A stretch of DNA of 64,000 nt from an uncultured cyanobacterium (lineage in GTDB: Bacteria; Cyanobacteriota; Cyanobacteriia; Cyanobacteriales; CAWCAG01). The notes below the pieces were generated by a model, which was not told the origin of the DNA, searched no databases, and was given only the letters and a program-made list of their open reading frames with translations. Below, piece after piece: positions 2,606 through 25,135 of this stretch. A program made the position numbers and the translations under genes. Location of the stretch: contig CAWCAG010000009.1 of NCBI GenBank assembly GCA_963793425.1, positions 448,001 to 512,000 on the forward strand. The letters run 5' to 3'. Position 1 is the stretch's first letter. Every line of letters begins with the position of its first letter.

Positions 2606-2642
2606 TTCTTTTGAGTAGTCGAAAAACTTTTCAATCTGTTAT

Positions 2643-3338: not shown

Positions 3339-3390
3339 AGTTTTGACCTCTACTTCTTCAATATTAAAAGTTAGTATAACCCCAATAAAA

Positions 3391-3910: not shown

Positions 3911-3970
3911 GGGCGGGTTATAGGTCAAGTTTTGGTAGGGAATGGACATTAATTCAAAACAAACCCGCCC
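3911..3970. repeat. REP-like palindrome GGGCGGGTT...AACCCGCCC just downstream of pdhC
   Basis: Perfect 9-bp inverted arms at 3911-3919 and 3962-3970. The same arms occur at 33261-33314. Confidence 0.7.
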
Positions 3971-3976
3971 AATCTA

Positions 3977-5257: not shown

Positions 5258-5452
5258 GGGGCGGTTTTCCGAGTTGAGGTAAGTAAGGTTAAACAATTAA
5301 AACCAGATCGTATTTTATCTCGATCTGGCTTTAATTGGTGAAGACGGGAGCAGTTGTCAAACTTAATCCCTATTAGCAATTAGCCGTTAGCCGTTAGCCA
5401 TTAAACATAATCAATGTTCAATGTTTAATGTTTAATGAGCAATAATCAATGT

Positions 5453-5902: not shown

Positions 5903-5979
5903 TAGTTTGTATCCTTTGTAATCATTTTCGAGGTGGTGATTGGCAACTGGTCTAAATCAACCAGTAACCAAACAATTGC

Positions 5980-7929
5980 TCAATTAAACATTCCGTCAAT
6001 CATATCGCGATAGCGTTCCCTGGCAACGGGACGGCGAATTTTTAGGGTTTGGGTCATCAGACCGTTTTCCTGGGAAAATGGTTCTAGAATAAGCTTGAAA
6101 GGGCCGATGCGGTCATCGGAGCGATAGCCTGGACGATCTTTGACCTCTCGGTTTAACTCTTGCCTGATCAACTTACCTACTTCTTCAACTTCATTCAGGT
6201 CAATTTTCGCTTCCTGATGAGATTCGGGTATTTCTAGAGAAAGGTTTTCTCGCACCGCCCATTGTTGTAGTGCTTCTAGGTTAGGAACAATTAAAGCCCC
6301 CAGGGAACGTTGATCTTGCCCTAATAACATAATTTGGTCTATATAAGCACTTCTGGCACAAGCATCTTCGATAGGTTGGGGTTCGATGTTTTCTCCGTTG
6401 GTAAGTACTATCGTATCTTTAGACCTTCCCGTGAGGACAATGTTATTGTTGGGGGTCAAAAAACCTAAGTCTCCGGTATCAAACCAACCTTCAGCATCAA
6501 TAGCTTTGGTGGTAGCTTCAGGTTTTTTGTAGTAGCCCTGCATAATCTGAGGTCCCCTGACTAAAACTAAGCCTTGTTGCCCTGTAGGTAATTCCTGACG
6601 GGTGGTGAGATCAACAATGCGAGTTTCTGTACCTGGTATGGGTAACCCCGAAGAGTAACGTAGATTTCCCCATAAGCGACGGGCATGGGTAACAGGAGAA
6701 GTTTCTGTCAAACCGTAACCAACGAGAATAGGGACTTCAACGATTTCAAAAAAGTCTTCTAAATGTCTGGGTAAAGAGCCGCCACCGCTAATAATTGCTT
6801 TGAATTCTCCTCCTGTAGCTTGGCGAACTTTTTCATAAACAATTTTTTTACCTAAACTATGAACAGGAAGTAGTAATAAAGATTTAATTTTGGCGCTGAA
6901 ACGTTCCCAACCAGAATATTGAGATTTTTTTATACATAGTCCTGCTGCCACCCTTTTAGCAAGGATATATTCTTGGGAAACTTTAAAAAAGAAGTTAATT
7001 AATTTTTGCTTGCTTTCTGGTTGTTGTCGAAACTGTTTTTGTACCCCTTCATAAATAGATTCCCATAACCGAGGTACAGCCACCATATAATTAGGTTTAA
7101 TTTTTTGTAGGTCTGTTTTAATGGAGCGTTTATTCGTATAAAATTGTGTACAACCTTGAGAAAGGAAAAAGTATTCAGCGCTGCGTTCGTAGGTATGCCA
7201 AGTGGGAAGAATGCTTAAAACCCTGTCACCGGCTTGGGGTTGGATCACTGTCCCCAAAGTAGTAACTTGGTGGAGGAGGTTATTATGGGAAAGCATTACC
7301 CCTTTTGGTTTGCCTGTTGTTCCGGAGGTATAAAGTAAGGTAGCTAAGTCGCTTCTTTTTTTGGGAATAAGTTCAAAATCATAACTTTCTCCGGCAGCCA
7401 TTACTTGAGAGAAATTAAGAATTTTATCAGGGGTTTCTTCAGTAATAGTTTCATCGGAGAGTAAGACAATAAAATCCAAATTAAAATTAGCAATTTCTGG
7501 TTGTAATTGAGCCAAAGCCTTTTTGTTTTCAATAATTAAACTCTGGCTATCACTATCTTCAAGAATATAAAGTAATTCTTGGGAATCTGCCTGGGAAGAA
7601 CGAGCAACATTAGAAGCCCCAGCCATCATACTACCTTGGTCAGCAATAAACCACCGAGGACTATTATCAGCAAATAGAGCTAGCCGAGAATTACCATTAA
7701 TGCCTAAACTCTGTAAACCGGCGGCAAATTGTTTTAATTGCTGGTATAACTCCCTATAGGTTAAAACAACCTCTGGTTTGCTATGGAGGTCATGAAGAGC
7801 TACAGTATCAGCAAACTTTTGGGCTGCTAAGAGCCAAACTTCTGGGAGATATTCTACAGAAAAGTAATCTGCCATACCTCGAAGCAAGTTTTGTTCGTGG
7901 GGGGTAAGTTTAATCCTGTCGGGTAACAT
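5980..7929 (-). CDS. aas: Long-chain acyl-ACP/acyl-CoA synthetase (AMP-binding)
   Basis: YTSGTTGKPKG, GYGLTETSP, GWFDTGDLG, GENIEPQPIE. Confidence 0.9.
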   Translation of the reverse strand: MLPDRIKLTPHEQNLLRGMADYFSVEYLPEVWLLAAQKFADTVALHDLHSKPEVVLTYRELYQQLKQFAAGLQSLGINGNSRLALFADNSPRWFIADQGSMMAGASNVARSSQADSQELLYILEDSDSQSLIIENKKALAQLQPEIANFNLDFIVLLSDETITEETPDKILNFSQVMAAGESYDFELIPKKRSDLATLLYTSGTTGKPKGVMLSHNNLLHQVTTLGTVIQPQAGDRVLSILPTWHTYERSAEYFFLSQGCTQFYTNKRSIKTDLQKIKPNYMVAVPRLWESIYEGVQKQFRQQPESKQKLINFFFKVSQEYILAKRVAAGLCIKKSQYSGWERFSAKIKSLLLLPVHSLGKKIVYEKVRQATGGEFKAIISGGGSLPRHLEDFFEIVEVPILVGYGLTETSPVTHARRLWGNLRYSSGLPIPGTETRIVDLTTRQELPTGQQGLVLVRGPQIMQGYYKKPEATTKAIDAEGWFDTGDLGFLTPNNNIVLTGRSKDTIVLTNGENIEPQPIEDACARSAYIDQIMLLGQDQRSLGALIVPNLEALQQWAVRENLSLEIPESHQEAKIDLNEVEEVGKLIRQELNREVKDRPGYRSDDRIGPFKLILEPFSQENGLMTQTLKIRRPVARERYRDMIDGMFN

Positions 7930-8104
7930 AATTAATTTGAACTTATGGTTATTTAGTTCCTACCATATCTTCCCAGCAGTCAAAAAGGGAGCATGGGACA
8001 GACACCTTTACTTTTGTCTTTATGCCAGTGTACGACAGTAAGATTGGCATAATCTTGAATTATGTTGAAGAATTAAATTTCTGTAACGAAAAGGAGCAAC
8101 TACC

Positions 8105-8521
8105 ATGAATTCATTACCCCCTTATGTTTCCTATCTTGGTATTGGCGTTGCAGCAATCCTGGGTCTAATTGTGATTATTTGGGCTATTCTTGCTGCAAGG
8201 GTTTTTATGCTTACAAAAGGGCTTCCCAAGGTAATTACCGCTTTTTTTGCTTTGATAGTGGAAGGTGAAATCGACGAAGCATACCAGTCTACTACCAATG
8301 ATTTTAGAGCCAAAATACCGAAAAAGAAGTTTATTAAATTGATTAAAAATAACAAATTTAAACAATTTAAACGCACAACTATGGCTATGCCCAAGGTAGA
8401 AGGGGAGCGGGAAATTATTGATGTTACCTTAATCCTTAATTCTGGTCGAGAAATCCTTCTAGAAATGGCTTTTGCTAAAAAAGGTAAAGTTTGGAGAATT
8501 GATGATTTAAAGAAGAAGTGA
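8105..8521 (+). CDS. Membrane-anchored hypothetical protein (DUF4864/NTF2-like)
   Basis: N-terminal TM helix, then AYQSTT..FR...WRID. Confidence 0.6.
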   Translation: MNSLPPYVSYLGIGVAAILGLIVIIWAILAARVFMLTKGLPKVITAFFALIVEGEIDEAYQSTTNDFRAKIPKKKFIKLIKNNKFKQFKRTTMAMPKVEGEREIIDVTLILNSGREILLEMAFAKKGKVWRIDDLKKK

Positions 8522-8543
8522 TTCAACTTCAAACTTCAACCAA

Positions 8544-9374
8544 CTAAACCACTGTTCCTGTTAAAGGAGAACTAGCAGTAGCATAAGCTTTAATGGGAAT
8601 GCGTCCAGATAAATAAGCTAACCTCCCCGCTTCTGTTGCCAAACCCATCGCTTTAGCCATCGCTACCGGATTCTTAGCTAAGGCGATCCCGCTATTAATT
8701 AGTAAAGCATCTGCCCCCAATTCCATAGCATAGGCAGCCTCACTAGGACTACCAATTCCTGCATCTACTACCACCGGAATTTTGGCTTCTTCAATAATAA
8801 TTTCAATATTGGCAGCGTTTTTAATGCCCTGTCCCGAACCAATAGGAGAACCCAAAGGCATAACTGTTACACATCCCGCTTCCTCTAAACGCTTGGCTAA
8901 AAGAGGGTCTGCGTTAATATAGGGTAGCACAGCAAAGTCTTCTTTAACTAACTGTTCTGCTGCTTCTAAAGTACCAATAGGATCAGGAAGTAGATATTTA
9001 GGATCGGGAATTACTTCTAATTTGACAAAATTATTATCTTCTTGACCTAATAATTTAGCCATTTCTCGTCCCAAACGAGCCACCCTTACGGCTTCTTCAG
9101 GGGTTTGACAGCCCGCTGTATTCGGTAACATCCACACTTTTTGCCAATCTAAGGCTTCTGCTAACCCTTCATGTCCTGGTGCTTTGGTTTGAACTCGTCG
9201 CACCGCAACAGTAACTATTTCGCAGGCACTAGCAGTAATACTTTGTTGCATATATTCTAGGTTGGCATACTTACCCGTACCCGTCATCAAACGAGAGGAA
9301 AAGCTACGGCCAGCAATGGTTAGTACATCATCATTGCCTATGGTTGCGGTAGGAAAAATCGTCAGGGAAGGCAT
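8544..9374 (-). CDS. thiG: Thiazole synthase (stand-alone, not fused to ThiO)
   Basis: [41 protein letters not shown]. Confidence 0.96.
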
Positions 9375-9517
9375 AATTAAAATTGCTAATAGCTAATAGC
9401 TAATTGCTAATTGGAGAAATGTTAGTAAAGTCGATTAATAAAAATTAGAAAGTATGAATTCAAGACTAATTTAAGATGCTCAATTCATACTTTCTCTAGT
9501 TAGATATTTTAAGAAAA

Positions 9518-9886
9518 TTACCACAAAGCTCTTACTGGTTGTTGCTCTACTACCACTGGTGAGGGTGCAACGGCGGGAGAAGGAGTGACTACAGGGGCAG
9601 GAGTAGCTACAGGTTCAGGATTAATTACAGGTTCAGGATTAACCACTGGATCTGTGGTGTTGGGTTGTTGGGCAACGGCTGCTGGATCTTCTGTGGTGTT
9701 AGGTTGTTGCTCTGTTGCTTCCGGAGACTGGTTGGCTTGCTCTGTAGATTCAACATTTTCATCAGGGGCAACTTGATTAGCGCTTCTATTAAAGCGATTG
9801 TTAGGGCGCAAAAATCCTAAAGCGGAGCCTACAACTATAGCCAAGGCTGACGCAATTAAGATAGCGCCAATTACTGTTTTGTTCAC
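9518..9886 (-). CDS. Small Pro-rich membrane-anchored or secreted protein ending PVRALW
   Basis: N-terminal hydrophobic helix, QQPNTT and NPEPV repeats, GTG start with upstream GAGG. Confidence 0.7.
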   Translation of the reverse strand: MNKTVIGAILIASALAIVVGSALGFLRPNNRFNRSANQVAPDENVESTEQANQSPEATEQQPNTTEDPAAVAQQPNTTDPVVNPEPVINPEPVATPAPVVTPSPAVAPSPVVVEQQPVRALW

Positions 9887-10017
9887 TGCTTGTTTCCTCT
9901 ATCCCTCTTTGATTTCTTTTTTCTTTCTTATTTTAACAATAACTCTTTTTTTCTTACTTATAGATTAACAAGCAGATAACTCTAAGCCAAGGAGAAACTT
10001 TTCTTGTTCTACTCCCT

Positions 10018-10467
10018 TTAGTGAGACAAATTCTGAGGTAAATATTTTTGTACAACACTCCATCCTGTCCAACTTACCCATAAAAAAGCCCAGAAGAGGG
10101 TAATGTTAGTGCTAATGTGGAGTGATCGCCCCCAAGATTTGCGGTTGATTTGAGTTGCGCTGCCTGCGGAGAGCAAAACTAAAGAAACTACTATCAGTCC
10201 CGCTACTAAATGCCAAGAATGCCCTAAGCTTCCATAGTGACCTATTGTTCCCACTAAACCGATCGCTAGTAGCAGTAGCACTAAAACGACCAGGATTGTC
10301 CCGGCAATGTAGTGAAAAGGGCGTAACCAAGAAGGACGAAGGCTTTTAGCTTTCCTACCATTAAAGAGCCAAAAGCCACTTATACCTAGTACTAAATAAG
10401 CTAAGACAGATAAACTCATTGACCAAGCTGCAATTTTCCAAAGCCAGAGAAAAGAAGGTAAATTCAA
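10018..10467 (-). CDS. DUF4079-like membrane protein
   Basis: Four TM helices with spaced His residues (RPFH, GHSWH, RSLH); N-terminus LPSFLWLWKIAAWSM. Confidence 0.75.
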   Translation of the reverse strand: MNLPSFLWLWKIAAWSMSLSVLAYLVLGISGFWLFNGRKAKSLRPSWLRPFHYIAGTILVVLVLLLLAIGLVGTIGHYGSLGHSWHLVAGLIVVSLVLLSAGSATQINRKSWGRSLHISTNITLFWAFLWVSWTGWSVVQKYLPQNLSH

Positions 10468-10598
10468 TTTGTATCCCCCAATAATCTTGAAACTTCATTT
10501 TTACCTAGTTTATCCTTGCTTGTTATTAAAAAGGGTTGCCTCAAAAGACAACCCCTAACTATTAACTATTTTTGTTATTTATGTTGTTATCTAAAATA

Positions 10599-10982
10599 CT
10601 AAGCCTTAGCTGTAACTAAAGTTTCTGTGAATTGGTTTTGTTGCTTAAGATTGTTGGCTACAGGAGTTTTTTCCTCACTTTTTTCCTCGTTTAATTGAGA
10701 AGAATTGTCTTCATTATCCAATTCACCTTCATCTATACGCAAACGTTCACAAGGAATAGTATCAGAAAGAATAGCACTGGCCATCTTTCCGGAATGAATT
10801 TCCAATAAAGCTTGTGGCAAAGCTTCAAATACTAACCGTTGTCCAGGAAAAACCACTCGTTCAAAATACCAATTAGTAACGTTAGTAATCCTAGCTATTT
10901 GAATTTGACTAGTAGCATTGACATAGCAGCAAAGTACGCTGCTTGTCTCACTCTGAGGGAGGGAATCAAGAATCTGAGCCAT
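10599..10982 (-). CDS. pirC: DUF1830 protein, probable PirC/CfrA (PII-interacting carbon-flow regulator)
   Basis: CCYVNATSQIQIARI..WYFERVVFPGQRLVFEA...SAILSDTIPC, plus an upstream NtcA-type promoter. Confidence 0.78.
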   Translation of the reverse strand: MAQILDSLPQSETSSVLCCYVNATSQIQIARITNVTNWYFERVVFPGQRLVFEALPQALLEIHSGKMASAILSDTIPCERLRIDEGELDNEDNSSQLNEEKSEEKTPVANNLKQQNQFTETLVTAKA

Positions 10983-11024
10983 AGCAATTGTTAAATTTTG
11001 TTTTTTATAAAGACTACACTTCCT

Positions 11025-11067
11025 AAGCTAACACTCACTGATCCCGACTGGCTGTAAATCCTAATAC
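11025..11067 (-). promoter_or_regulatory. NtcA-activated promoter: GTA-N8-TAC box, 23-nt spacer, TAGCTT -10
   Basis: GTAaatcctaaTAC at 11054-11067. On the minus strand TAGCTT (TAN3T) at 11030-11025 points to the DUF1830 ATG at 10982. Confidence 0.72.
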
Positions 11068-11483
11068 CAATCAGAATTTACCTACTATAACAAAAGTAGG
11101 TTGATCTGGTCTTATGTTTCGTTTTTGACTTCCCTTAAAGAAATTCCTACGGAAATAGGCTTCCTACATCCACAGGCTAACTTCAACTCAGCTTAGGGGC
11201 TTACTAGTAAAGCTTACTTGCTCTAAGAACAATTATTTTTGTTTTACTAAAATAATTAATTAGTTGATAGCCAGGGTTGATGGCGCTAAAGTTAAGTTAT
11301 GTGAAAAAGGCTCTCATATTTTTGCCTTTCTCTCAGGTAAGTTTCTACATACTCAGTTGCTATTAGCTTTGACAACATCCCTTCATAGCAATCCAAATCA
11401 AACTATATCATCCTTGAGAAAGATGTCATCTTAAGTTCTCTTAAAACTTCTTGATTTTAACCAACAAAACACTTTAAAAAATA

Positions 11484-13049
11484 ATGGAAAAAGGTATTTT
11501 GTATGTTCGCCTACCCTGTAACCCGATTTTCCCCATCGGAGTAGTGTATTTAGCTGACCATATACACAAACTCTTTCCAGGAGTAGAGCAGCGTATTTTC
11601 GACATGGGTACTGTGCCACCTTTGGATTTTGCGACATCCTTAGATCAATATATAGATGAGTTTCAACCGACTCTATTAGTTTTTTCTTGGCGCGATATCC
11701 AAATTTATGCACCTGTGGGGGGTAGGGGAGGAAACCCTTTACAAAATGCTTTCGAGTTTTACTACGCTAAAAACCCTTTCATTAAGCTGCGGGGGGCTTT
11801 AGGAGGGTTTAAGGTTGCTAGCGCCTATTACGGTGAATTGTGGCGTAACGAGGGCTTAATTAAGCGAGGTTTAAAAAGAGCAAGGAAACACAACCCCGCA
11901 GCCAAAGCGGTGGTTGGTGGCGGTGCGATTAGTGTTTTTTATGAACAAATGAAAAACCAACTACCGAAAGGAACTATTGTTTCTGTAGGAGAAGGGGAAA
12001 CTTTATTAGAAAAATTGCTGAGAGGGCAAGATATTCAGGGGGAAAGATGCTATGTTGTGGGGGAAACTCAACCCCGCGATCGCCTGATTCACGAATGGCC
12101 TGAACCCATTGAAAAATCTGCTTGCAACTACGACTACATAGCTAAGATTTGGCCAGAGTTTAGCTATTATCTCCAGGAAAATGACTTTTACATTGGGGTA
12201 CAAACCAAGCGCGGTTGTCCCCACAATTGCTGCTATTGTATTTATACAGTAGTGGAAGGGAAGCAGGTACGCATAAATCCTGCCGATGAAGTTGTCAAAG
12301 AAATGCGCCAACTTTACGACCGAGGCATTCGTAACTTCTGGTTCACTGATGCACAATTTATTCCGGCCCGCAAGTTTATTCCTGATGCTATTGAATTGTT
12401 AGAAAAAATTCTGGCTTCTGGGATGAATGATATTCATTGGGCTGCTTATATTCGCGCTGATAATCTTACCCCTGAGTTGTGCAAGTTAATGGTACAAACG
12501 GGGATGAATTATTTTGAAATTGGCATCACTAGTGGTTCCCAGGAATTGGTGAGAAAGATGCGAATGGGTTATAACCTACGTACTGTCCTGGAAAATTGCC
12601 GGGACTTGAAAGCAGCAGGTTTTAATGATCTAGTTTCTGTCAACTATTCTTTCAACGTTATTGATGAACGTCCTGAAACCATTCGCCAAACTATTGCCTA
12701 TCACCGAGAATTAGAAAATATCTTTGGGGTAGATAAAGTTGAACCAGCTATCTTCTTTATCGGGTTACAACCCCATACTCACCTAGAAGAATATGCCTTC
12801 AAAAATGACATCATCAAACCAGGCTATAATCCTATGAGTTTAATGCCCTGGACTGCCAAAAAATTGCTTTGGAACCCTGAACCTTTAGGCTCATTTTTTG
12901 GTGAAGTATGCCTCCAAGCTTGGCAACAAAAACCTGATGATTTTGGTCGGGAGGTGATGCAAATTCTTGAAGATAAGCTAGGTAAATCTGAGTTAGAAAC
13001 AGCTTTAAGTGCCCCGGTGAAAGTAGAAAAACAACTAGCAGGTGTTTGA
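11484..13049 (+). CDS. B12-binding radical SAM protein (photosystem II high-light acclimation type, Slr0320-like)
   Basis: CPHNCCYC CxxxCxxC motif; N-terminus ILYVRLPCNPIFPIGVVYLADH. Confidence 0.88.
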   Translation: MEKGILYVRLPCNPIFPIGVVYLADHIHKLFPGVEQRIFDMGTVPPLDFATSLDQYIDEFQPTLLVFSWRDIQIYAPVGGRGGNPLQNAFEFYYAKNPFIKLRGALGGFKVASAYYGELWRNEGLIKRGLKRARKHNPAAKAVVGGGAISVFYEQMKNQLPKGTIVSVGEGETLLEKLLRGQDIQGERCYVVGETQPRDRLIHEWPEPIEKSACNYDYIAKIWPEFSYYLQENDFYIGVQTKRGCPHNCCYCIYTVVEGKQVRINPADEVVKEMRQLYDRGIRNFWFTDAQFIPARKFIPDAIELLEKILASGMNDIHWAAYIRADNLTPELCKLMVQTGMNYFEIGITSGSQELVRKMRMGYNLRTVLENCRDLKAAGFNDLVSVNYSFNVIDERPETIRQTIAYHRELENIFGVDKVEPAIFFIGLQPHTHLEEYAFKNDIIKPGYNPMSLMPWTAKKLLWNPEPLGSFFGEVCLQAWQQKPDDFGREVMQILEDKLGKSELETALSAPVKVEKQLAGV

Positions 13050-13133
13050 GCTGTGTCCTTTCTCCCTTAACCCTTCTTCGTCAATCAAAAATTGACACTA
13101 AGATATCAATCAACTAAATAAACATCAACCGAT

Positions 13134-14480
13134 ATGTTGCAAGGCTCAATATTAGAAAAATTAAAAACCGCCCATCACGGTGGTGAGAGACCCCTCAATC
13201 TAGGAGTTTATTACAAAAACACTCTAGTCGCTCTTTGTCACGCCTTAGAAGACTTTATTTTAGAGTCTGACAGTTCCCCGATTATGATTACTGCTTTCCA
13301 GCAGGGTAAATGGTATTTACAAGAGGCAGAACGTTACAGGGAGTTAGCGGATCAATCTTCTCAAGTTGTGATTATGGCAGCCCCTAATGCTGGTTTTGCC
13401 GACCATCCTACCAGTAAAAAAGATAATGTTAATTTAGTCAACCTGAACACTGATGATCCGGTGGCCCAAGAATGGCATTTAATGATTATGTCGCCCCAGT
13501 ATACAGCCATGGTTCTCTGTCAGGAACTATCGGAGGAAGACTATGGTGCTTCTAGACAGCCCAAGGAAGATTTGGAGCGCAAATTCTATGGTTTTTGGAC
13601 TTTTGAACCGGAATTAGTTAAGGAAACCATAGATATTTCCCTTGCTCATATTGACAAATATGACCACAAATTAGCAACTCAATTAACCGCAAAAGCAGAA
13701 GGGATCGCTGCGAAATTTGGTGAGGAACCCCATGATGATTTAGGAAAGGTGGTTTCTCGCGTAGTAACATATCTCCAAACTAGCCAAGAACAGCTTGAAG
13801 AACCCCTTTCACAAGCTGTTTCTGCGGATTTGGATACTAATCTCCTCTCCAACGAAATGCAAGCCTTCCTGCGTATGGCGCAATTAATTAATCCCTCTAA
13901 TCAACCCATAGCCGCAGCAGAAGTTTCAGCTTTAGCAGAAAATATGGGTCAAATGCTGGATTTACCTGCTTGGCAAATTAAACGTTTACGTTTAGCGGGT
14001 TTACTTCACGGTATTGTACCTGGTTTGATGACCAAAGTTGCTTCAGAAGATGAAGCTCCTAGCTGCCCTCTAGTGCCAGAAGTAGAGGCCTTACGGATTA
14101 TGCCCCAACTCCAAGCCGTAGCCCAAATTATCACCCATCAACACGAACGTTGGGATGGTGAAGGCGCTCCTGCGGGTTTGGCTTATGATAATATCCCCTT
14201 AGAATCAAGAATTTTGGCTTTAGTTAGGGAATTTCGTGACCAAATTGCTCAACTATCTCAACAAAAAGATAACCTTAGCCAAGAAGAAGCCTTATCCCAA
14301 GCTTTAGCCAATTGCCAAAGCAAGGCAGGAGAAGTTTTTGACCCTAAGCTAGTTGAAGGACTCTCTTTGTTAGTGATGGGAATGCAGCAAGGGATGAGTA
14401 TTCAAGCTAGTCAGCCCAAAATAGCTGCGGGTATGTGGTTATTAGATGCTGATGCAGCAGAGAAAATTCAATATGTTTAA
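13134..14480 (+). CDS. DICT sensory domain plus HD-GYP-like phosphohydrolase
   Basis: YYKNTLVALCHALED and EWHL (DICT); HQHERWDGEGAP.GL...IPLESRI (HD-GYP-like, degenerate). Confidence 0.85.
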   Translation: MLQGSILEKLKTAHHGGERPLNLGVYYKNTLVALCHALEDFILESDSSPIMITAFQQGKWYLQEAERYRELADQSSQVVIMAAPNAGFADHPTSKKDNVNLVNLNTDDPVAQEWHLMIMSPQYTAMVLCQELSEEDYGASRQPKEDLERKFYGFWTFEPELVKETIDISLAHIDKYDHKLATQLTAKAEGIAAKFGEEPHDDLGKVVSRVVTYLQTSQEQLEEPLSQAVSADLDTNLLSNEMQAFLRMAQLINPSNQPIAAAEVSALAENMGQMLDLPAWQIKRLRLAGLLHGIVPGLMTKVASEDEAPSCPLVPEVEALRIMPQLQAVAQIITHQHERWDGEGAPAGLAYDNIPLESRILALVREFRDQIAQLSQQKDNLSQEEALSQALANCQSKAGEVFDPKLVEGLSLLVMGMQQGMSIQASQPKIAAGMWLLDADAAEKIQYV

Positions 14481-14504
14481 ATGGGGAGCAGGGCTTAGGT
14501 AACA

Positions 14505-15146
14505 ATGGGTATGACCAATATAGAAACAATTAAAGCTGGCAAAGAAAAACAGTTTCCGGGAATAGATTTAGAAGATGAGGATCTTTGCCAACATCATTTA
14601 GAAAAGGTTAACCTATCCGGAGCAAATTTAGTCGGTACAGATTTTTCTGGCTCCAACCTTAAAGGCGCTCGTTTTGATGGGGCGAATTTACTCGGTGCTA
14701 GATTAGTTGGAGCTGACTTACGAGCCAATTTACTTGGTAGTAATTTGATGCAAGCAGATTTGACTAGTGCTGATTTGCGGGGTAGCAATTTGCGAGGTGC
14801 TAACCTGATGGGAGCTAAATTAGTTAAAGCTTCCTTAGCTGGAGCCTTTTTGAGTGGAGCAAATTTAACTAGGGTTAATCTGCAAGGAGTTGATTTACGA
14901 GGAGCCGATTTAAGGGGTGCTAACCTTAACAGCGCTAACCTCAAAGGGGTTGACCTTAATCAAGCAGACTTACAAGGTGCTAGTTTAAGCGAAGCAAATT
15001 TAGAAGAAGCGGATTTGCGCGGAGCTAACCTTTCTGGGGCTAACCTTTCTGGGGCTAATTTGCTCTGTGCTGAATTAGAAGGGGCTGAATTGGCAGGGGC
15101 TAGTTTCGACCGTACTTGTTTGTTAGGAACAGCAATTAAGCATTGA
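14505..15146 (+). CDS. Pentapeptide repeat protein
   Basis: Continuous A(D/N)Lxx repeats. Confidence 0.95.
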   Translation: MGMTNIETIKAGKEKQFPGIDLEDEDLCQHHLEKVNLSGANLVGTDFSGSNLKGARFDGANLLGARLVGADLRANLLGSNLMQADLTSADLRGSNLRGANLMGAKLVKASLAGAFLSGANLTRVNLQGVDLRGADLRGANLNSANLKGVDLNQADLQGASLSEANLEEADLRGANLSGANLSGANLLCAELEGAELAGASFDRTCLLGTAIKH

Positions 15147-15477
15147 CATCCCCCCATCACCTCGTCTCGACGGGAAGAGGAATAGTTTTAGAACTATTCC
15201 TGAGTAAATTATCCAAATATATCCCCGATTAAGATCATGGTGCGATCGCTCAAAACAACAACTCAACTAAACGGTAATGCCTAGCTCCCCACCCTCGACA
15301 TTTAACCTCATCTAAGTTAAAGTTGTAATGAGTCTGAGTTACCTTTACACAAAGAAAATCGCCTCAATCTTTGGGAAGGTGAGTTTTTCGTATTCAGGCT
15401 AAAATGGAAGGTGTCAAGGTGCTTAAAATAATTACTACATCTGTAAACATAAAAAAATTAAGGCGGGAGCCTGGCCA

Positions 15478-15933
15478 ATGAATGCTGAAGGCGCACAACT
15501 AAAACCAATCAAATCCCTAGAAGATGCTTTTGAAAGGTGTCAGGATCTGGGTATGCGTCTGAGCCGCCAGCGTCGCTACATTCTAGAGCTGCTTTGGCAA
15601 GAACAAGAACACCTTTCTGCTAGGGCAATATATGATCGCTTAAATCAGCAAGGGAAAGATGTTGGTCATACTTCGGTATATCAAAATTTGGAAGCTTTAT
15701 CAAGCCAAGGAATTATTGAGTGTTTAGAGCGGTGTGATGGCCGGCTTTATGGTAACATCAGCGATGCCCACAGTCACGTTAACTGCTTGGATACCCAGCA
15801 AATTATTGATGTTTATGTAGAATTACCCCCAGATTTGTTGGCACAGATTGAGAAACAAACTGGAGTGAGTATATCTGAATATCGCATTGATTTTTATGGC
15901 TACCGCCGTTCCCAAGACAACACCTCTCAATAG
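15478..15933 (+). CDS. furC: Fur-family regulator, FurC/PerR type
   Basis: KPIKSLEDAFERCQ.LGMRLSRQRR...GHTSVYQNLEALS...HSHVNCLDT closely matches recalled Anabaena FurC. Confidence 0.85.
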   Translation: MNAEGAQLKPIKSLEDAFERCQDLGMRLSRQRRYILELLWQEQEHLSARAIYDRLNQQGKDVGHTSVYQNLEALSSQGIIECLERCDGRLYGNISDAHSHVNCLDTQQIIDVYVELPPDLLAQIEKQTGVSISEYRIDFYGYRRSQDNTSQ

Positions 15934-15975
15934 GAAAGGCTAAACTGTCCAGTTATGGCACAATTAACTGGGTAG

Positions 15976-17703
<1,728 letters not shown>

Positions 17704-17823
17704 GTGCAGAAAATCTACTTTCCCCGTCTGATGATTCTGAAACTATCCGATTAAGAGTTCCCTTGATTTGCTCCGCCCTCTCCTTCCTCACCAACAACCT
17801 CTGCAACTAAACACCAATTTTGT

Positions 17824-18243
17824 ATGACATACTGGGTCAAAGTTGATTACGAGCGCAAAAAATTTGTTGTCGATCTAGAGCGTATCAGTTCTTTTATCTG
17901 CGCTCCTAACGGCAGAATAACTTTTTGGCTACCTGATAGTTCTATACCTGTAATTATTAATAAGAATACTCACGCAGATGATTATAATCAAGTAATTGAG
18001 TATATAAATCAGCTTTTTGGTTCTCCTTTTGGTGGGGCTTGGTTAAGGCTCTTTTATGAACGTAATGAATATGTAATTGATTTGAGTAAGATTAGCAGTT
18101 TTTGTTACTCGGAGCGGGGTAAAATCACTTTTTGGCTGCCGGATAGCGCCACGCCTATTGTGATTAGCAAGCAAAATGATCCTAGTGATTATCAAAAGTT
18201 GCTTGATTTTGTGAGTACGAAAACAGGTTATTCTTTACCTTAA
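17824..18243 (+). CDS. Hypothetical protein built from two tandem copies of a ~65-aa domain
   Basis: Both halves read W....YER..(F/Y)V.DL..ISSF....G.ITFWLPDS..P..I.K....DY. Confidence 0.8.
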   Translation: MTYWVKVDYERKKFVVDLERISSFICAPNGRITFWLPDSSIPVIINKNTHADDYNQVIEYINQLFGSPFGGAWLRLFYERNEYVIDLSKISSFCYSERGKITFWLPDSATPIVISKQNDPSDYQKLLDFVSTKTGYSLP

Positions 18244-18280
18244 AGTTGCTAATTGCTAATAGTTTTATCCCTGTTATCTT

Positions 18281-18503
18281 ATGATGACTATATTAGATTT
18301 AAAACCATTAATTAGCTTAACTAAAGAAGATTTTTATCAACTTTGTCGAGCTAATCCAGAAGTACCATTAGAATTAAGTCGCAACGGAGAATTAATTATT
18401 ACGTCTCCAGTGGGAGGAGAAGTTGGTAACAAAGAAGCTGATTTAATTTTTCGTGTTGGTTTTTGGAATCGCCAGAGTAAGCTAGGGTTAGTGTTTAGTT
18501 CCT
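18281..18503 (+). pseudogene. Uma2-family (DUF820) endonuclease, N-terminal fragment
   Basis: LTKEDFYQLCRANPEVPLELSRNGELII.SPVGG...GLVFSSS, after which homology stops before the catalytic PD-(D/E)xK part. Confidence 0.82.
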
Positions 18504-18504
18504 C

Positions 18505-18947
18505 AGAGGTTCGCTATTACAATACTAACCTTACTGAAATGGTTAAAATATTAGGCAGAGACCTATTAATGTAGAGGCTAAAGCTATGTCAGGGGATAAT
18601 ATCAGGCAAAAGGCAATTTCGGTATTGGTAACATGAGTGGTGGTGAAATTAAGGATTCTAAAGTTGCTGGAGTTATTAATGAAGCTGAACAACAAAACCT
18701 AGCCCAAGCTGCGGCGGAAATACAGCGATTATTAGAGCAATTGGAAAACTCCTACTCCACAGAAACCACAGCAGGTAAAATGCAACTCGCGACTGAAGCG
18801 ATTACACAGATTGAAAATAATTCTACCCAGAAAGCTAAAGTTATCAGGAGTTTAAAAGCTGGGAGTGTTTCATCGTTTGAGCAGTTTCTTAATCATCCTG
18901 CTGCTAGTTTTGTTATCGCGACGTTAGAGGAATTTCCGAAGAAATGA
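18505..18947 (+). pseudogene. Frameshifted C-terminal fragment of a cyanobacterial pentapeptide/LRR-type protein
   Basis: Three frames give NTNLTEMVKIL / INVEAKAMSGDNIRQ / KGNFGIGNMSGGEIK...QQNLAQAAAEIQRLLEQL...FLNHPAASFVIA. It is joined directly to the Uma2 fragment. Confidence 0.6.
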
Positions 18948-19225
18948 ATGCTGCCTGAATGCGACGAGGAGCAATTTTTATTGACTCCCCAGGTTCAGGC
19001 GATCGCGTCCTAATCCCTCGATAAAGTACTCTAAATTACAATAATATTTGAAATAGGAGAAGTTTTTAATATACAAGCTGTAGATAATACAATAACTCAA
19101 GTTGAATTTGCTAGTTCTCCAACAGTTTCAACTACCTTATTAGACTATGGCAAAAACTTAGAAAATGCTGAACGTCTCAAAAGTTATTTAACATCTTATC
19201 GATTAATAGACTGATTAATAATTAA

Positions 19226-19327
19226 TATAGCAGTTCTCAATCACATGAGGTACACTAGCATTTTCTAATGCTCCCTACTCCCTCAAACCAAGGTCTTTTG
19301 TACCTAACTAGTACGAGAATTGCTATA
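19226..19327. mobile_element. ~100-bp MITE/REPIN-like element with terminal inverted repeats
   Basis: TATAGCAGTTCTC (19226-19238) versus GAGAATTGCTATA (19315-19327), 12 of 13 complementary. Inner pair AGGTACA / TGTACCT. Confidence 0.7.
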
Positions 19328-19448
19328 ATTAATTTACTTTTCGTCACAATTAAAAAAATCCTTGGTGAGAGAAGCTATGTTGAAGACAACACAAATCAAG
19401 TATTTTTTCTCCCAGCAATGAGTAAAATAGTAGCTTCCCCTGAAATAT

Positions 19449-20197
19449 ACAAATACTGCTAGTGGTGTAATTCGCCTCAAACCACAGCAGTTTATTCACG
19501 TTTTAGATAACAACACTGGGGTAACTCGCTTAGAAGTTGGCCCCCAGACAATTACTCTGCAAGATGCAGAAAGATTGGTACTCAAACCAACGCCGATGGT
19601 AGTTGTACCACCCCGTCATTATTGTCTCATTGCTAATCCAGTGTTGCAAAACGTAAGGCTTTACATTTACGGGCTAAACGCACATTCACCGATATTTTCA
19701 ACCGCCAACGTCGGGCTGGGGATGAGTGGCTGGTGACAATTGAAGATGCAGAAATTCATTTACCTGATGTTTATGAGGAGGTGGTGGGGGAAGTAGAAAT
19801 CACTACCCTTAGCGATCGCCTATTGATATTCAATCCGTTGAACCAGTAGATGAAGAGACTTTGAAGAGTTTACAAAAATCTGTGCAAATCGCTATTCAAA
19901 TTACTACCGATGCCCAAGAAGCAGCGGCAAGCCAAGAAGCAGAGTTAGCCCACAAAGAGGCATTGAATGAGTTGGAAGTTGCTAAAGCAGAAAAAATGTT
20001 GGAGATTACAGCCACAGAATATCAACGCAAGGTTAGAGACAATTAAGGCGATCGCACAAGCCGGACTAGAAATGCCAGCGAGGTTGTTGCAAGGTTTAAG
20101 GATTCAAAGTGTTTTGATTACTGATGGTAAGATTCCTCTTAATCTTTTTGGGGCCGCTAATGGTATGATTGGTTTCCCTGAAAGTCAAGATGAGTGA
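19449..20197 (+). pseudogene. mvp: Major vault protein (MVP) homologue, internally deleted and frameshifted
   Basis: Four collinear blocks in changing frames: VIRLKPQQFIHVLDNNTGVTRLEVGP...MVVVPPRHYCLIANPV; KALHLRAKRTF.D...[102 protein letters not shown]. All match recalled MVP sequence. Confidence 0.92.
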
Positions 20198-20272
20198 TAC
20201 TTCTGGAAAGAGGTAAGGTAGTTTATCTAGCCTCAAATCTTCTAGCATTAAGGGTATTGCTAAAATAATAAA

Positions 20273-21157
20273 ATGAAAATTTCTGATCTTGGTGAACTTC
20301 TACTCTTAGCTTCCCTTTGGGGGGCTTCTTTCTTGTTTATGAGGATAGCATCTCCTGTATTCGGTCCGGTTTGGCTAATGGAATGCCGGGTTTTAATAGC
20401 CGGATTAGCTTTGCTACCTCTGGTAGTTAAATTGGGTTTGTTAGGAGAAGTGCGCCGTTATGCAAAGCCTCTGTTTATTATCGGTTGTTTTAATGCAGCC
20501 CTGCCATATCTACTTTTTGCCTTTGCTAGTCTCTTTTTACCTGCTGGAGTCACCTCCATTCTCAATGCCACAACGCCCTTATTTGGGAGCATTGTCGCTT
20601 TTATTTGGTTAAAAGAAAAATTTACCTTGAGTAAGATAATCGGGTTAGTATTGGGCTTAGGTGGAGTAGTTGTTTTAGTCGGGTGGCAGAGTTTTGTGGT
20701 TACGCCAAACTCTTTGTTAGCAGTAGGTGGTGTATTGATAGCAACATTAATGTATGCGATCGCTGCCCCTTATATCAAAAAGCAACTCTCCGGAGTTCCT
20801 TCTTTAGTTATTGCCACAGGCAGTTTACTTTTTGCTCCTTTGTTCCTCTTACCTGCTATTCCTTTTACCGTACCAACAACAGCACCAACTCCCATCAGCA
20901 TAATGGCTTTATTTGGACTGGCTTTGCTTTCAACTTCTTTGGCATACATCCTCTATTTTCGCTTAATCAGTAATGTTGGTTCTACCAAAGCTTTAACTGT
21001 CGCTTATTTAATTCCTATCTTCGCAATGCTTTGGGGAGCAATTTTTTTAAAGGAAGCGATTACTGTATCTATGATTTTGGGTTGTAGTTTGGTTTTATTG
21101 GGGACTGCGATCGCTAATGATTTGTTTAAGAGTATGGTTTTAAAAAAGATGTTTTGA
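20273..21157 (+). CDS. EamA/DMT family transporter
   Basis: About 10 TM helices; LWGASFLFMR, SILNATTPLF, YLIPIFAMLWG. Confidence 0.92.
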   Translation: MKISDLGELLLLASLWGASFLFMRIASPVFGPVWLMECRVLIAGLALLPLVVKLGLLGEVRRYAKPLFIIGCFNAALPYLLFAFASLFLPAGVTSILNATTPLFGSIVAFIWLKEKFTLSKIIGLVLGLGGVVVLVGWQSFVVTPNSLLAVGGVLIATLMYAIAAPYIKKQLSGVPSLVIATGSLLFAPLFLLPAIPFTVPTTAPTPISIMALFGLALLSTSLAYILYFRLISNVGSTKALTVAYLIPIFAMLWGAIFLKEAITVSMILGCSLVLLGTAIANDLFKSMVLKKMF

Positions 21158-21183
21158 AAATTCTCAAACCTTTTTGTTTGGTA

Positions 21184-21335
21184 TTGCCTAATTGTTTGTG
21201 TTATAATTATTTCATCAGATAAAATTCAATCTTAACTAAAAAAATATTTCTTCGGAGCGGGGTTGGGAGCTTTCTTAAAATGGGCATGGAAGGCAAACTT
21301 CTGACCTGACAACTTTTCACCAGAATCACTTAACA
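21184..21335 (+). repeat. Dispersed non-coding repeat, copy A, with extended -10 (TGtTATAAT, 21199-21207)
   Basis: tttgtgttataattat.tcatcagataaaattcaatctt...aaaaaatattt..ttggag..gggttgg.ag.tt.cttaaaatgg.catgg.a.gcaaac is shared with the reverse complement of 50421-50595. Confidence 0.85.
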
Positions 21336-21379
21336 GGCATCTCCAAAAATCAAAAACTTAAAAGCCTTTTGTTTTTTAA

Positions 21380-21724
21380 TTAAGGATTGCCGAGAGATTA
21401 CTGATTTCTGGCATTGGTGTAGAAGGTTTCCTGAGTGGTGTTTTTACCTCCTCTGGAGATGAGCAAAACATCAACACGGGTAAGGGAGGAAATATCACTG
21501 TTAACAACTCTGGTACAGTAACTCTCAGCATGGAATGGGCAAGTGTTGACAATGCTGTTGGTAGTAACAATGCAGCTATCACCGAAAAAACCCAAACTCT
21601 TTACCAACAAGCACAAGGTTGGGAAATAACTTCCGATGGTAAGATAATTTTAACCGCAACAGCAACAGAAGTTGCTTCTCATCAAAACCGAATGCAACAT
21701 CCCGATTGTGGTAGCGGAATGTAG
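21380..21724 (+). pseudogene. Remnant of a cyanobacterial filamentous-haemagglutinin-like exoprotein
   Basis: Open frame lacking the N-terminus: SGVFTSS...GKGGNITVN (beta-helix repeat) joined to QAQGWEITSDGKIILTA...HPDC, the typical C-terminal motif. Confidence 0.7.
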
Positions 21725-21755
21725 AAAGTTGAAAATTATCTCCTCTTTTTAATTC

Positions 21756-22727
21756 TCAAGCCTGGGGAGTACTATTATCTCCATACTTAATTAAAAGAGC
21801 GATCGCAATACTAACAGTAAAAATTAGTACCATACTCAAAGCTGAGCCAAAACCCCAATTACGGGTTGCTCCCAAGAATTGGTTATAAATTAAGCGGGAG
21901 ATAGTCATGCTAGAAAGCCCTCCCAAAATTTCTGGATCTACAAAGTCTGCTAAGGAAGAGATAAAGACTAGTAAAGAACCAGCAAAAATACCAGGAAAGG
22001 TTTGAGGGACAGTGATCCTCCAAAAAGTCTCCGCAGGTTTTGCTCCTAAATCCGCAGAGGCTTCTAATAGCTGTTTATCCAACTTTTCAAGAGAAGCATA
22101 GAGAACTAAGACCATATAGGGCAAATAACTGTAGGCCATACCAATTAAAACGGCTGTTTTGCTATACCACAGTGCCAATTCAGGGATGCCAAAAAGACCT
22201 AAAAAGCTATTTAATACTCCCGTCGGACGCAGAATGGTAATCCAAGCATAGGTACGTAACAACGAAGAAGTCCACAGAGGTAAAATAAACCCTAACAACA
22301 GGATATTACGCCAACGTTTCGGGGCCATTTGTGCCAGCCAATAAGCTACAGGAAAGCCTAGAGATAAGCAAATAATGGTGCTGCCAATGGCGAAAAAGAG
22401 CGAGCGACCCAAAACTTTGAGGTAAAGGGGGTTGAGTACTTCTAGATAATTACTAATACCATCCGGATTAACCACTTGCCCCGGTCTAATGCCAGATACT
22501 AAACTCAACTCAAAAATCACCAAAGTTGGTAATATCAGCAGTAAAAGTAACCATAACCCCGCAGGGCCAAGTAAAGTTAATATACCGAACCATTGAGACT
22601 CAGACGGACTCGTTTCTACAGCAACCGCTGATTTTTGGAGTTCGTTATTGACTTCTGGGTTAGATCGGGGAGGAGAAGTAGATTTTTTAGGCACGAGTGC
22701 AATAATATTTAAGGTTAAAGATACCAA
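21756..22727 (-). CDS. potB: Spermidine/putrescine ABC transporter permease
   Basis: LPLWTSSLLRTYAW, EAA loop LLEASADLGA, NWGFGSALS. Confidence 0.88.
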   Translation of the reverse strand: MVSLTLNIIALVPKKSTSPPRSNPEVNNELQKSAVAVETSPSESQWFGILTLLGPAGLWLLLLLILPTLVIFELSLVSGIRPGQVVNPDGISNYLEVLNPLYLKVLGRSLFFAIGSTIICLSLGFPVAYWLAQMAPKRWRNILLLGFILPLWTSSLLRTYAWITILRPTGVLNSFLGLFGIPELALWYSKTAVLIGMAYSYLPYMVLVLYASLEKLDKQLLEASADLGAKPAETFWRITVPQTFPGIFAGSLLVFISSLADFVDPEILGGLSSMTISRLIYNQFLGATRNWGFGSALSMVLIFTVSIAIALLIKYGDNSTPQA

Positions 22728-22742
22728 TAACTAATAACTAAT

Positions 22743-23945
22743 TTAACCACTAGTTAATTGAGTCCAGAAGCGGTCATAAATTTCGTTAACTTTTTCATCT
22801 AAAGGAATTAGTCCCTCACATTTTTCTAGGACAGATTCTGGGGGATAAAGGGTGTAGTCGTTTTGAATGTCTTGGGGCAGAAGATTATAAGCAGCTTCAC
22901 TAGGTACAGAAAAATGCAAGCGTTGACAAATCCGTGCAGCTATTTCCGGTTTGAGCATAAAATTAATCCAAGCATAAGCAGCATCTAGGTTAGGGGCGCT
23001 GCGAGGTATAACTAGGGTATCTACCCAAACTGAGGAACCGCTATCAGGAACTATATATTCTAAATCTTCGTTTTCATCAATAACTTCTGTCGCATCAGAG
23101 GAGTAACACATGGCCATGAATAAATCCCCAGAGAGGATTTGTGTTCGCCAAGCATCAGAATTTAATGAGGCAATGGTGGGTTTAAGTTCAACTAATTTCT
23201 CATAAGCTTGTTTAATTTCTTGGTAATCTGTGGAGTTGTAAGAATAACCTAAAGAACTTAAGGTCGCACCCATAACTTCTCGCACATCATTAGGTAAAGT
23301 GACGCGCCTAGCAATCTCTTGGCTATTTTCCCATAAGTAATCCCAATCTTCAGGTAGTTGAGAAAGTTTGTTGGGGTTATAAACTAAACCTGTGGTTCCC
23401 CAACTCAATGGCACACTGTATTGATTACCAGGATCATAAGCAGGATCTCTAAAATTGGGAAATAGTTGGTCAAGCCCTCTTATGCGAGACTGGTCTAACT
23501 TTCTCAATATCCCTAGCTCGACCATATTAATCACCATATACTCTGAAGGATAGATGATGCTATAGCCTCCGCCACCACTAGCTTGAATTTTAGCTAGCAT
23601 GACTTCATTGGAATCAAAAACATCTGCTACTACTTCGATACCTGTTTCTTGGCGAAACCGATCTAATAACTCGTCATCAGTGTAACCAGCCCAGGTGTAA
23701 ATATATAGTTTGTCTTGAGAACCTGTTTGAGGCGCGCTAGCTTCCTCTGAGGATTCTCCATCTTCCTCTTCCTCCTCTTCTTCACTAGCTGCTGGACTAA
23801 CGTTAGCAATTGTCCAACCACAACTAGATAGCAATAAGCTAGGAATTGTTACCGCCGCACCCTGTAAAAATTGACGGCGGCGAAGATGTTTTAATAACCT
23901 GTGGCGATGAGTAGAAGACACTGTATACCGTTTATCATTTATCAT
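22743..23945 (-). CDS. potD: Spermidine/putrescine ABC transporter substrate-binding protein
   Basis: Tat-like RRQFL plus lipobox; YTWAGY, FDSNE.MLAK, DPGNQYSVP..WGTTG. Confidence 0.88.
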   Translation of the reverse strand: MINDKRYTVSSTHRHRLLKHLRRRQFLQGAAVTIPSLLLSSCGWTIANVSPAASEEEEEEEDGESSEEASAPQTGSQDKLYIYTWAGYTDDELLDRFRQETGIEVVADVFDSNEVMLAKIQASGGGGYSIIYPSEYMVINMVELGILRKLDQSRIRGLDQLFPNFRDPAYDPGNQYSVPLSWGTTGLVYNPNKLSQLPEDWDYLWENSQEIARRVTLPNDVREVMGATLSSLGYSYNSTDYQEIKQAYEKLVELKPTIASLNSDAWRTQILSGDLFMAMCYSSDATEVIDENEDLEYIVPDSGSSVWVDTLVIPRSAPNLDAAYAWINFMLKPEIAARICQRLHFSVPSEAAYNLLPQDIQNDYTLYPPESVLEKCEGLIPLDEKVNEIYDRFWTQLTSG

Positions 23946-23995
23946 TTACCATTGAACATTTTAGCCTTCGGCAATGGCAAGCCGTACACCAATCA

Positions 23996-25135
23996 TTACC
24001 AATCTCCTAAAGCTAAACAATCTCTCGCAGACCAGTGGACATAAACAGGGGTATCAGCTTGTGGTAAATTAACTGACATATTGGGCTGCATAACTGTTAA
24101 AGAGTCTCCTGTAACTAATTCCACCACATAATGAACATGGGTTCCTAAATACATAATGTGTTTCAAGCGTCCCTCTAAACAATTATGCTCTCCGGTGGGA
24201 GGTTCAAGGCTCAATTTAATTTTTTCGGGACGAATACTAACCATAACTTTTTTATGCAAAGAAGAACGATCTGGTTCTTCTGTATCTGGTAATTGCACAA
24301 TAAGTTCTAAGCCGCGATTAGTGACAATTCTGCCAAAAGAAGCATCGCTAGCTTCGATAAAACCTTCAAATAAATTAGTATCCCCAATAAAATCAGCCAC
24401 AAAAGGAGTGCGGGGGCTTTCGTAAACTTCCGTAGGATGACCAATCTGTTCAATTTTACCCGCCCGCATCACAGCGATGCGATCAGACAAAGAAAGGGCT
24501 TCTTCTTGATCATGGGTAACCATCACAAAAGTAAGCCTCAACTCCTGATGTAAGCGAGAAAGTTCTACCTGCATTTCTTTACGTAACTTCAAATCTAAAG
24601 CCCCCAAAGGCTCATCCAACAGAAGTACCGCAGGACGGTTAACCAAAGCCCTAGCTAAAGCTACCCTTTGCTGTTGTCCCCCTGATAACTGATTGGGGAA
24701 ACGATTAGCATAAGACTCCATTTGTACACTAGCTAGGGCTTCTTTAACACCATTTTCCACTTCCAATTTGCCTAATCTTTTAACTTTTAGTCCAAAGGCA
24801 ACATTTTCTGCCACAGTTAAATGGTTAAATAGGGCGTAACTTTGGAACACCGTATTCACAGGGCGGCGATAGGGAGGGGCATTATTCATTAACTGATTTT
24901 GAATAAAAATCTTCCCCGCACTTAAGGTTTCAAAGCCAGCAATTAAACGCAAAACCGTGGTTTTACCGCATCCTGAAGGCCCTAAAATGCTGAAAAACTC
25001 TCCTTTACGGACGCTGAGGTTCACCCCGCCAACAGCAGTTTCGCCATCAAAAACTTTAAAGGCTTGGCGTAGTTCAACATCTATATTAGCTGAGCTATCT
25101 GTTGAGCGTTGTTCCCTAGAAGAAGTTTGCAGCAT
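23996..25135 (-). CDS. potA: Spermidine/putrescine ABC transporter ATPase
   Basis: GPSGCGKT, LSGGQQQRVALARA, LDEPLGALD, C-terminal TOBE region. Confidence 0.92.
   Translation of the reverse strand: MLQTSSREQRSTDSSANIDVELRQAFKVFDGETAVGGVNLSVRKGEFFSILGPSGCGKTTVLRLIAGFETLSAGKIFIQNQLMNNAPPYRRPVNTVFQSYALFNHLTVAENVAFGLKVKRLGKLEVENGVKEALASVQMESYANRFPNQLSGGQQQRVALARALVNRPAVLLLDEPLGALDLKLRKEMQVELSRLHQELRLTFVMVTHDQEEALSLSDRIAVMRAGKIEQIGHPTEVYESPRTPFVADFIGDTNLFEGFIEASDASFGRIVTNRGLELIVQLPDTEEPDRSSLHKKVMVSIRPEKIKLSLEPPTGEHNCLEGRLKHIMYLGTHVHYVVELVTGDSLTVMQPNMSVNLPQADTPVYVHWSARDCLALGDW

Follow-up and report, generated by a model that had tools for sequence, protein, structure and literature searches.

Did this cyanobacterial lineage once possess a gene for the major vault protein (MVP), and does anything of that gene still work? 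The question is raised by four short blocks of coding sequence in a 64,000-nucleotide stretch of DNA (hereafter the window) from an uncultured cyanobacterium, which a preliminary description had read from the letters alone as the remnant of an MVP gene. We find 248 codons (about 245 had been claimed) in three reading frames at window positions 19449–20197 (+), within open stretches that span 19434–20197 (+), and both the coordinates and the order proposed for the four blocks proved correct. Very probably these blocks are what is left, without function and in decay, of a cyanobacterial MVP gene that once had its full length of ~880 codons. The evidence that follows gives good support to a genuine pseudogene with no function left, belonging to a gene family that is known in bacteria but rare there.

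Identity of the blocks

The residues kept and lost were set by alignment with five intact orthologues of the same order, and later with 63; the numbering is that of the 884-aa orthologue of locus L024. The relic consists of the following pieces:

19449–19652 (+): block 1, N-terminal repeat 1 and the start of repeat 2; L024 residues 15–82, 56/67 identical
19652–19819 (+): block 2, a single middle Vault repeat; L024 residues 247–302, 48/56 identical
19822–19929 (+): block 3a, last shoulder residues and start of the cap helix; L024 residues 660–695, 35/36 identical
19930–20034 (+): block 3b, end of the cap helix, in frame with 3a; L024 residues 787–821, 22/35 identical
20036–20197 (+): block 4, cap-ring C-terminus and the original stop codon; L024 residues 827–879

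The blocks are collinear with the solved rat and human MVP (PDB 4V60/4HL8, 7PKZ, 11DR and 9Z4W), matching residues 3–65, 225–279, 638–696 and 806–851 with E values given overall as 1e-24 to 1e-8. Taken singly, block 1 matches rat MVP at residues 3–65 (E 1.1e-24), block 2 at residues 225–279 (E 2.3e-28), block 3 as a whole (3a and 3b, 19822–20034) the solved MVP at residues 638–696 (E 8e-12), and block 4 at residues 806–851/855 (E 1e-8 to 2e-9). All significant PDB matches of the four blocks are MVP chains, and not SPFH or TolA-like coiled coils. In the Pfam scan, block 1 matches Vault_2 (PF17794) with 26.3 bits against a cut-off of 23.6, and block 2 matches Vault (PF01505) with 51.1 bits against a cut-off of 27. 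Vault repeat domains (Pfam PF01505 and PF17794–6) are therefore present in the relic, though only about two repeats are left. The same scan gives no MVP family on blocks 3 and 4, and no match of the MVP shoulder domain (PF11978) on any block; this domain spans residues 552–669 of an intact orthologue, and the relic retains only residues from 660 on. The identification as MVP rather than as a generic SPFH or coiled-coil protein is thus upheld, well beyond anything that chance would give, by collinear matches to the solved protein and by Vault families above their cut-offs. The relic differs from eukaryotic MVP in that its host is bacterial and the copy is dead.

A single MVP frame of about 850–900 codons, with repeats, shoulder, cap helix and cap ring, is not found here; the order of the parts is preserved, but the relic keeps 28% of the MVP codons and has no usable start. 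Block 3, which had been taken as one block, is really two pieces (19822–19929 and 19930–20034) with ~91 codons deleted between them. An extension of block 2 to 19846, given by a frame-2 tblastn match, is spurious, as these bases belong to the beginning of block 3, which they match at 90–100% in frame 1.

Lesions and the probable old start codon

Five lesions are visible in the relic, namely a one-base insertion, three large deletions and a 14-nt deletion:

between the old ATG (19418) and block 1: one-base insertion
junction near 19644–19654: ~164 codons deleted (repeats 2–4)
junction 19820–19821: ~357 codons deleted (repeats 6–9 and nearly the whole shoulder)
junction 19929/19930: in-frame deletion of ~91 codons inside the cap helix
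20034–20036, between blocks 3 and 4: 14-nt frameshifting deletion, 5 codons lost

The break between blocks 3 and 4 had been taken for a large gap; it now shrinks to these 14 nucleotides. With neither the lateral repeat wall nor the shoulder left, and with its remaining pieces in three frames, the relic is unable to form a vault shell.

Bacterial genomes have a deletional bias, and the large deletions would reflect the usual deletion-biased decay of bacterial DNA that is no longer under selection. In intact genes, A-R/S-Q-D/E-A-E is encoded at each of the two sites that the in-frame deletion has brought together, and this deletion was probably produced by slippage or recombination between short similar repeats. 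With a best intact orthologue of 84% identity over 187 columns, neither the breakpoints nor the microhomology can be fixed to the base.

Two features bear on the start of the gene:

19418–19420 (+): likely ancestral ATG, one frame off block 1, inside a frame-2 ORF ending at 19462
19443–19445 (+): A-run with one extra A relative to a second haplotype in metagenome contigs; the 5' frameshift

The statement that the remnant has no ATG holds for the frame of block 1, in which there is no ATG, GTG or TTG after the stop at 19431, but an ATG does lie in the neighbouring frame at 19418–19420. The second haplotype, which lacks one A at 19443, occurs in three of the four metagenome runs described below at depths of 9.9/29.7 (X1), 3.7/10.8 (X2) and 4.5/13.6 (X3). 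Loss of this one A would bring the ATG at 19418 into the frame of block 1; the window copy therefore appears to carry a one-base insertion, with the old start still visible. The earlier idea that an ATG had lost its G gives way to this out-of-frame ATG.

Reality of the assembly and absence of the missing parts

Could faulty assembly or binning have produced the disrupted structure, by joining unrelated pieces, by collapsing a gene or by letting in contaminant DNA? The genome, 98.6% complete in 9 contigs, is metagenome-like, the runs carrying the sequence being sediment metagenomes, and its contamination is put at 2.04%, so the question is a fair one. However, every junction is crossed by Logan short-read contigs in 4/4 metagenome runs, all from a single study, and these contigs show 0 differences within the relic. 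Since the assembly's own source data may be among these runs, the agreement counts as the result of a second assembler and not of a fully independent sample. The contigs cover the following window positions:

19467–20800: X1 and X2
19467–20207: X3
19380–20617: X4, with nine differences, all after 20207

Furthermore, the window lies on one contig (bases 448001–512000), cyanobacterial genes stand on both sides of the relic, and the density of the octamer HIP1 is 35 per 64 kb. Mis-assembly or contamination, named in the preliminary description as what would overturn its reading, is extremely improbable in the light of these data.

The rest of the gene was not found elsewhere in this genome. A PF01505 profile search of the whole genome gave one match, which is the relic, and a search with the 884-aa orthologue gave five matches, all inside window 19452–20185. 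With its frames disrupted and its missing parts absent from the rest of the genome, the relic is what it had been taken for: a dead, internally deleted copy of a full-length MVP gene. No RNA run is among the listed runs carrying the sequence, and no Rfam family was found in window 15000–24000 at E up to 0.1.

Intact and decayed MVP genes in bacteria

A scan of one genome per species yielded 73 MVP loci, 63 of which are intact, with a single match of more than 800 residues and ORFs of 813–926 aa. Three loci are cut by contig ends (L044, L066, L096), three have one frameshift (L085, L087, L094), and three carry large internal deletions of their own (L090, L093, L095). The remaining one, from Moorena bouillonii (L027), has an extra in-frame segment of ~70 codons (11422–11762) between reference residues 473 and 517. 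The locus titles name mostly filamentous cyanobacteria (Moorena, Symploca, Okeania, Laspinema, Microcoleus, Oscillatoria, Calothrix and Nostoc). The survey thereby provides a working list of 63 intact bacterial MVP genes in filamentous cyanobacteria, Thiomargarita-like sulfur bacteria and Chloroflexota. Rarity of the family in bacteria, as had been asserted, is borne out by the frequency of PF01505 above its cut-off: it was found in 5/60 other genomes of the same order, each time as one open frame of 878–903 aa, and in 2/400 other genomes drawn evenly from the phylum, where one further match was weak and sub-threshold.

Daly et al. 2013 (PMC3762200) described MVP homologues of cyanobacteria, which group with eukaryotic (amoebozoan) MVPs; bacterial MVPs were surveyed in a 2019 preprint by Sokolskyi (bioRxiv 10.1101/872010) and cited again in a 2023 preprint on phage MVPs. 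The term "pseudogene" is absent from the accessible parts of PMC3762200 and of the 2023 preprint, and our literature search found no published vault particle for any bacterial MVP. An intact cyanobacterial orthologue carries all Pfam MVP domains and aligns over residues 21–878 to residues 7–856 of human MVP (E 1e-299). Compared with known cyanobacterial MVPs (Lyngbya/Moorena F4Y3B4, Oscillatoria acuminata K9TKX8 and Microcoleus PCC 7113 K9WB38), the relic belongs to the same family and clade and has the same HIP1 positions; theirs are intact ORFs of 813–926 aa with all Pfam MVP domains, whereas the relic has 28% of the codons in three frames.

The three deleted copies of other genomes are as follows:

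10001–11304, Dapis sp. (L090): relic without residues 226–656
10001–11400, Floridaenema evergladense (L093): relic without residues 72–370, ending near residue 762
10001–11745, Okeania hirsuta (L095): relic without residues 437–756, with a 115-nt insert after the first repeat

Decay of MVP by large deletions is recurrent in the family. The mode is the same in these copies as in the relic of the window, large internal deletions together with frameshifts, but the breakpoints of all four differ, and the deletion events are therefore independent. This recurrence agrees with the deletional bias of bacterial genomes. Taken together, the relic and the three independently deleted copies indicate that MVP is dispensable and has been lost repeatedly.

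In a tree of the relic and the 63 intact rows, the relic falls inside the cyanobacterial MVP clade, grouped loosely (SH-aLRT 92) with a Prochloron-labelled MAG, an Okeania, a Spirulina group and L077–L079. The terminal branch leading to it has a length of 0.28, where the median is 0.07; other lone rows reach 0.28–0.33. Seven of the 63 intact rows, 4 from Thiotrichaceae and 3 from Chloroflexota, form a separate group (SH-aLRT 96). These Thiotrichaceae (L069, L070, L072 and L091, giant or filamentous sulfur bacteria) and Chloroflexota MAGs (L073, L075 and L092) have a eukaryote-like MVP that is 67–73% identical to the cyanobacterial one; among the matches listed in our literature search, no paper paired "major vault protein" with giant sulfur bacteria taxa. 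Of additional note, the MVP of a MAG labelled Actinomycetota (L074) nests next to a Coleofasciculaceae gene (end branches 0.065 and 0.07) and contains HIP1; this is probably a cyanobacterial contig in the wrong bin.

Constraint and age of the relic

How long ago was the gene inactivated? The median identity of the relic to the 63 intact orthologues is 76.2% over 248 columns, and that of the intact genes among themselves over the same columns is 80.5% (range 68.8–86.3). Identity to the family consensus in blocks 1, 2 and 3a is 82%, 91% and 100% (36/36 residues in block 3a), against medians of 87%, 89% and 94% in the intact genes. Blocks 1–3a show no excess of change and no internal stop, so that decay by substitution has been slight there. 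All 63 intact genes agree at 80 columns, and the relic departs from them at 4 of these (intact median 0, maximum 4); the changes are unevenly placed, with 4/22 in block 4 and 0/58 elsewhere (Fisher p 0.005). The C-terminal part of the relic may therefore have been the first to lose constraint; if this is true, there would have been a period, before deletion of the wall, in which the cell put up with a cap-less MVP or even made use of it.

The claim that the lineage carried a full-length gene "recently" holds in part. Blocks 1–3a are conserved like live genes, and the inactivation would be young relative to the deep splits of the MVP family. On the other side stand the 4/22 changed invariant columns of block 4 and the nearest genomes: a same-genus genome (G001) and a same-family genome (G002) have no trace of MVP, either with the PF01505 profile or with the 884-aa protein, which does find the relic in the source genome, and window 19449–20197 has no DNA match in the former. 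Intact copies, which had been hoped for in close relatives, are absent from these two genomes, and the best one found elsewhere is 84% identical over 187 columns. Because no close intact orthologue exists, a "recent" loss cannot be dated. The relic serves as a marker: this cyanobacterial lineage formerly had a vault shell gene like that of eukaryotes, which it now lacks.

The conservation of blocks 1–3a, as near the family consensus as live genes, also invites the thought that a fragment is still in use as a small protein with a new role. Open frames for this exist, in the form of a 76-codon ATG-started ORF at 19967–20197 (the cap-ring end) or of the second-haplotype ORF that runs from the ATG at 19418 through block 1. 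However, all the change at invariant columns (4/22) is held by the cap-ring block, these frames are frameshift products with out-of-frame leaders or tails, and neither the same-genus nor the same-family genome keeps anything of the gene. There is also no short MVP-derived gene family among the 73 loci. A fragment with a new role is very unlikely on these grounds, and we retain the reading of the stretch as a pseudogene.

HIP1 and residence in cyanobacteria

The relic contains two HIP1 octamers:

19812–19819 (+): in S-D-R codons, directly before the second deletion junction
20048–20055 (+): in A-I-A codons of block 4

These had been put forward as a sign of long residence in cyanobacteria, and comparison with intact genes bears the point out. 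Both octamers occupy positions used by intact genes of the cyanobacterial clade: HIP1 is present at the S-D-R position (TLxDR) in 24/56 of them and at the A-I-A position (AIAQA) in 36/56. Among the non-cyanobacterial MVP homologues, only 1/7 has any HIP1.

Since one junction (19820/19821) lies directly 3' of a HIP1 site and another 12 nt before one, deletion between HIP1 sites was considered as a mechanism and rejected. The sites are inherited coding positions of intact genes, codons compatible with HIP1 are missing from the intact genes at the opposite end of the big deletion, and none of the junctions of L090, L093 and L095 abuts HIP1. The placement at the junctions of the relic is a coincidence.

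The locus and its nearest relatives

The surroundings of the relic bear on whether the gene was inherited whole or arrived already broken. DNA of the same-genus genome is ~84–87% identical to window 13425–18244; the synteny stops at 18244, and a 1114-aa helicase gene comes next in that genome. The counterpart of the window's EamA gene (20273–21157) is on a different contig of that genome, where its neighbours are a TPR gene and a putative mutL of 585 aa. The relic thus sits in a 2-kb debris zone at a rearrangement point, together with the following features:

18263–18574: truncated Uma2-family endonuclease gene, 103 codons; profile positions 2–63 of 172
19225–19324: MITE-like insert of 100 nt, ~94 nt upstream of the old ATG

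Debris of this kind, at a place where synteny with the same-genus genome breaks off, is what one might expect if MVP had never been whole in this lineage and a broken piece had come by horizontal transfer or on mobile DNA. Several observations speak against this. HIP1 is found at the family's usual cyanobacterial positions, the GC content of the relic (0.433) is near that of the window (0.399) and of pyrG (0.42), no transposase or integrase adjoins the relic, and a gene pair upstream of it is common to two intact loci. This last point deserves comment. A divergent DUF1830/B12-radical-SAM gene pair lies 6.4 kb upstream of the relic, and L077 and L078 have the same pair 5–7 kb upstream of their intact MVP genes, the radical-SAM protein being 80–82% identical. 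The first half of pyrG in the L077/L078 genomes is 84–85% identical to that of the window, against 77–79% overall in two other MVP-bearing genomes. The gene pair hints at an ancestral locus common to the relic and L077/L078, though it could be a coincidence between moderately related genomes. Arrival in a broken state is, in our judgment, highly improbable, and we suggest that the MVP gene would have been inherited vertically at this locus and would have decayed in place.

A broader proposal would go further: filamentous cyanobacteria may have had MVP on their chromosomes since long ago and passed it on mainly by vertical descent, losing it repeatedly by deletion, with the relic marking an ancestral locus common with the L077/L078 lineage. 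We put this forward tentatively, as an account that is possible and somewhat doubtful in its entirety. If it were true, it would argue against a recent transfer from a eukaryote to a cyanobacterium and would bear on the origin of vaults.

Some minor features of the locus can be added. The DNA of the truncated Uma2 gene has an 84% match to another contig of the same-genus genome. The MITE-like insert is missing from the second haplotype, in which 19224 is followed by 19325, at about one third of the depth in X1–X3; it has 16 other matches in the source genome, one of them 98% identical, and matches in the same-genus genome as well. Downstream of the EamA gene, window ~21195–21320 is a dispersed repeat with a dozen or more matches of 70–89% scattered over the same-genus genome. 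Window 17767–18243 holds a small gene with two similar halves and no Pfam family, a 139-aa ORF that is conserved in the same-genus genome at the synteny break.

Neighbours of MVP genes

Intact copies had been expected to lead to partner genes of a bacterial vault system. This expectation was disappointed: in a clustering of 1089 ORFs, taken from no more than 10 kb away from MVP at the 73 loci, no neighbour family beyond two clusters was common across clades. The widest cluster after MVP itself is a mixed one of WD40, TPR and histidine-kinase proteins, found in 31 loci at varying distance and on either strand; pentapeptide-repeat proteins are near MVP in 12 loci, and all other clusters are confined to at most 7. 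Pfam assignments made for 40/117 immediate neighbours belong to unrelated families, with 9 of the 40 being of STAND, TIR, WD40 or TPR types, which are widespread in genomes of this sort. Among the loci examined, none had a vPARP, TEP1 or vault-RNA-like neighbour, and an Rfam search of 6 intact loci gave no family of vault-RNA or Y-RNA type, but HEARO, 5_ureB_sRNA and one CRISPR repeat. The lack of a conserved partner gene next to MVP narrows what a putative "bacterial vault system" could be.

Individual lineages have neighbours of their own. In three Oscillatoria genomes, a gene for an SrpI-like type 2A encapsulin shell lies downstream of MVP, so that two protein-cage genes adjoin. Its distances 3' of MVP are as follows:

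L030 (region 13267–16606): 600 nt
L035 (region 8060–11411): ~730 nt
L038 (region 13921–17257): ~1250 nt

The encapsulin gene is followed by a large ORF of a cluster whose L048 member is a class-V aminotransferase (the ORF of L030 being placed by the cluster alone), and an ORF of this cluster is also found 0.2–6.8 kb downstream of MVP in four loci of the Allocoleopsis clade. In L078, a HEARO RNA (6597–6825, 119.9 bits) lies upstream of MVP between an NDH-2-like gene and a kinase-WD40 gene. Such a protein kinase-WD40 gene, of ~790–845 aa and on the same strand, stands directly upstream of MVP in L077–L079, L088 and L095 and two ORFs upstream in L090, and it thereby accompanies MVP in two separate lineages, the L077–79 clade and Okeania/Dapis.
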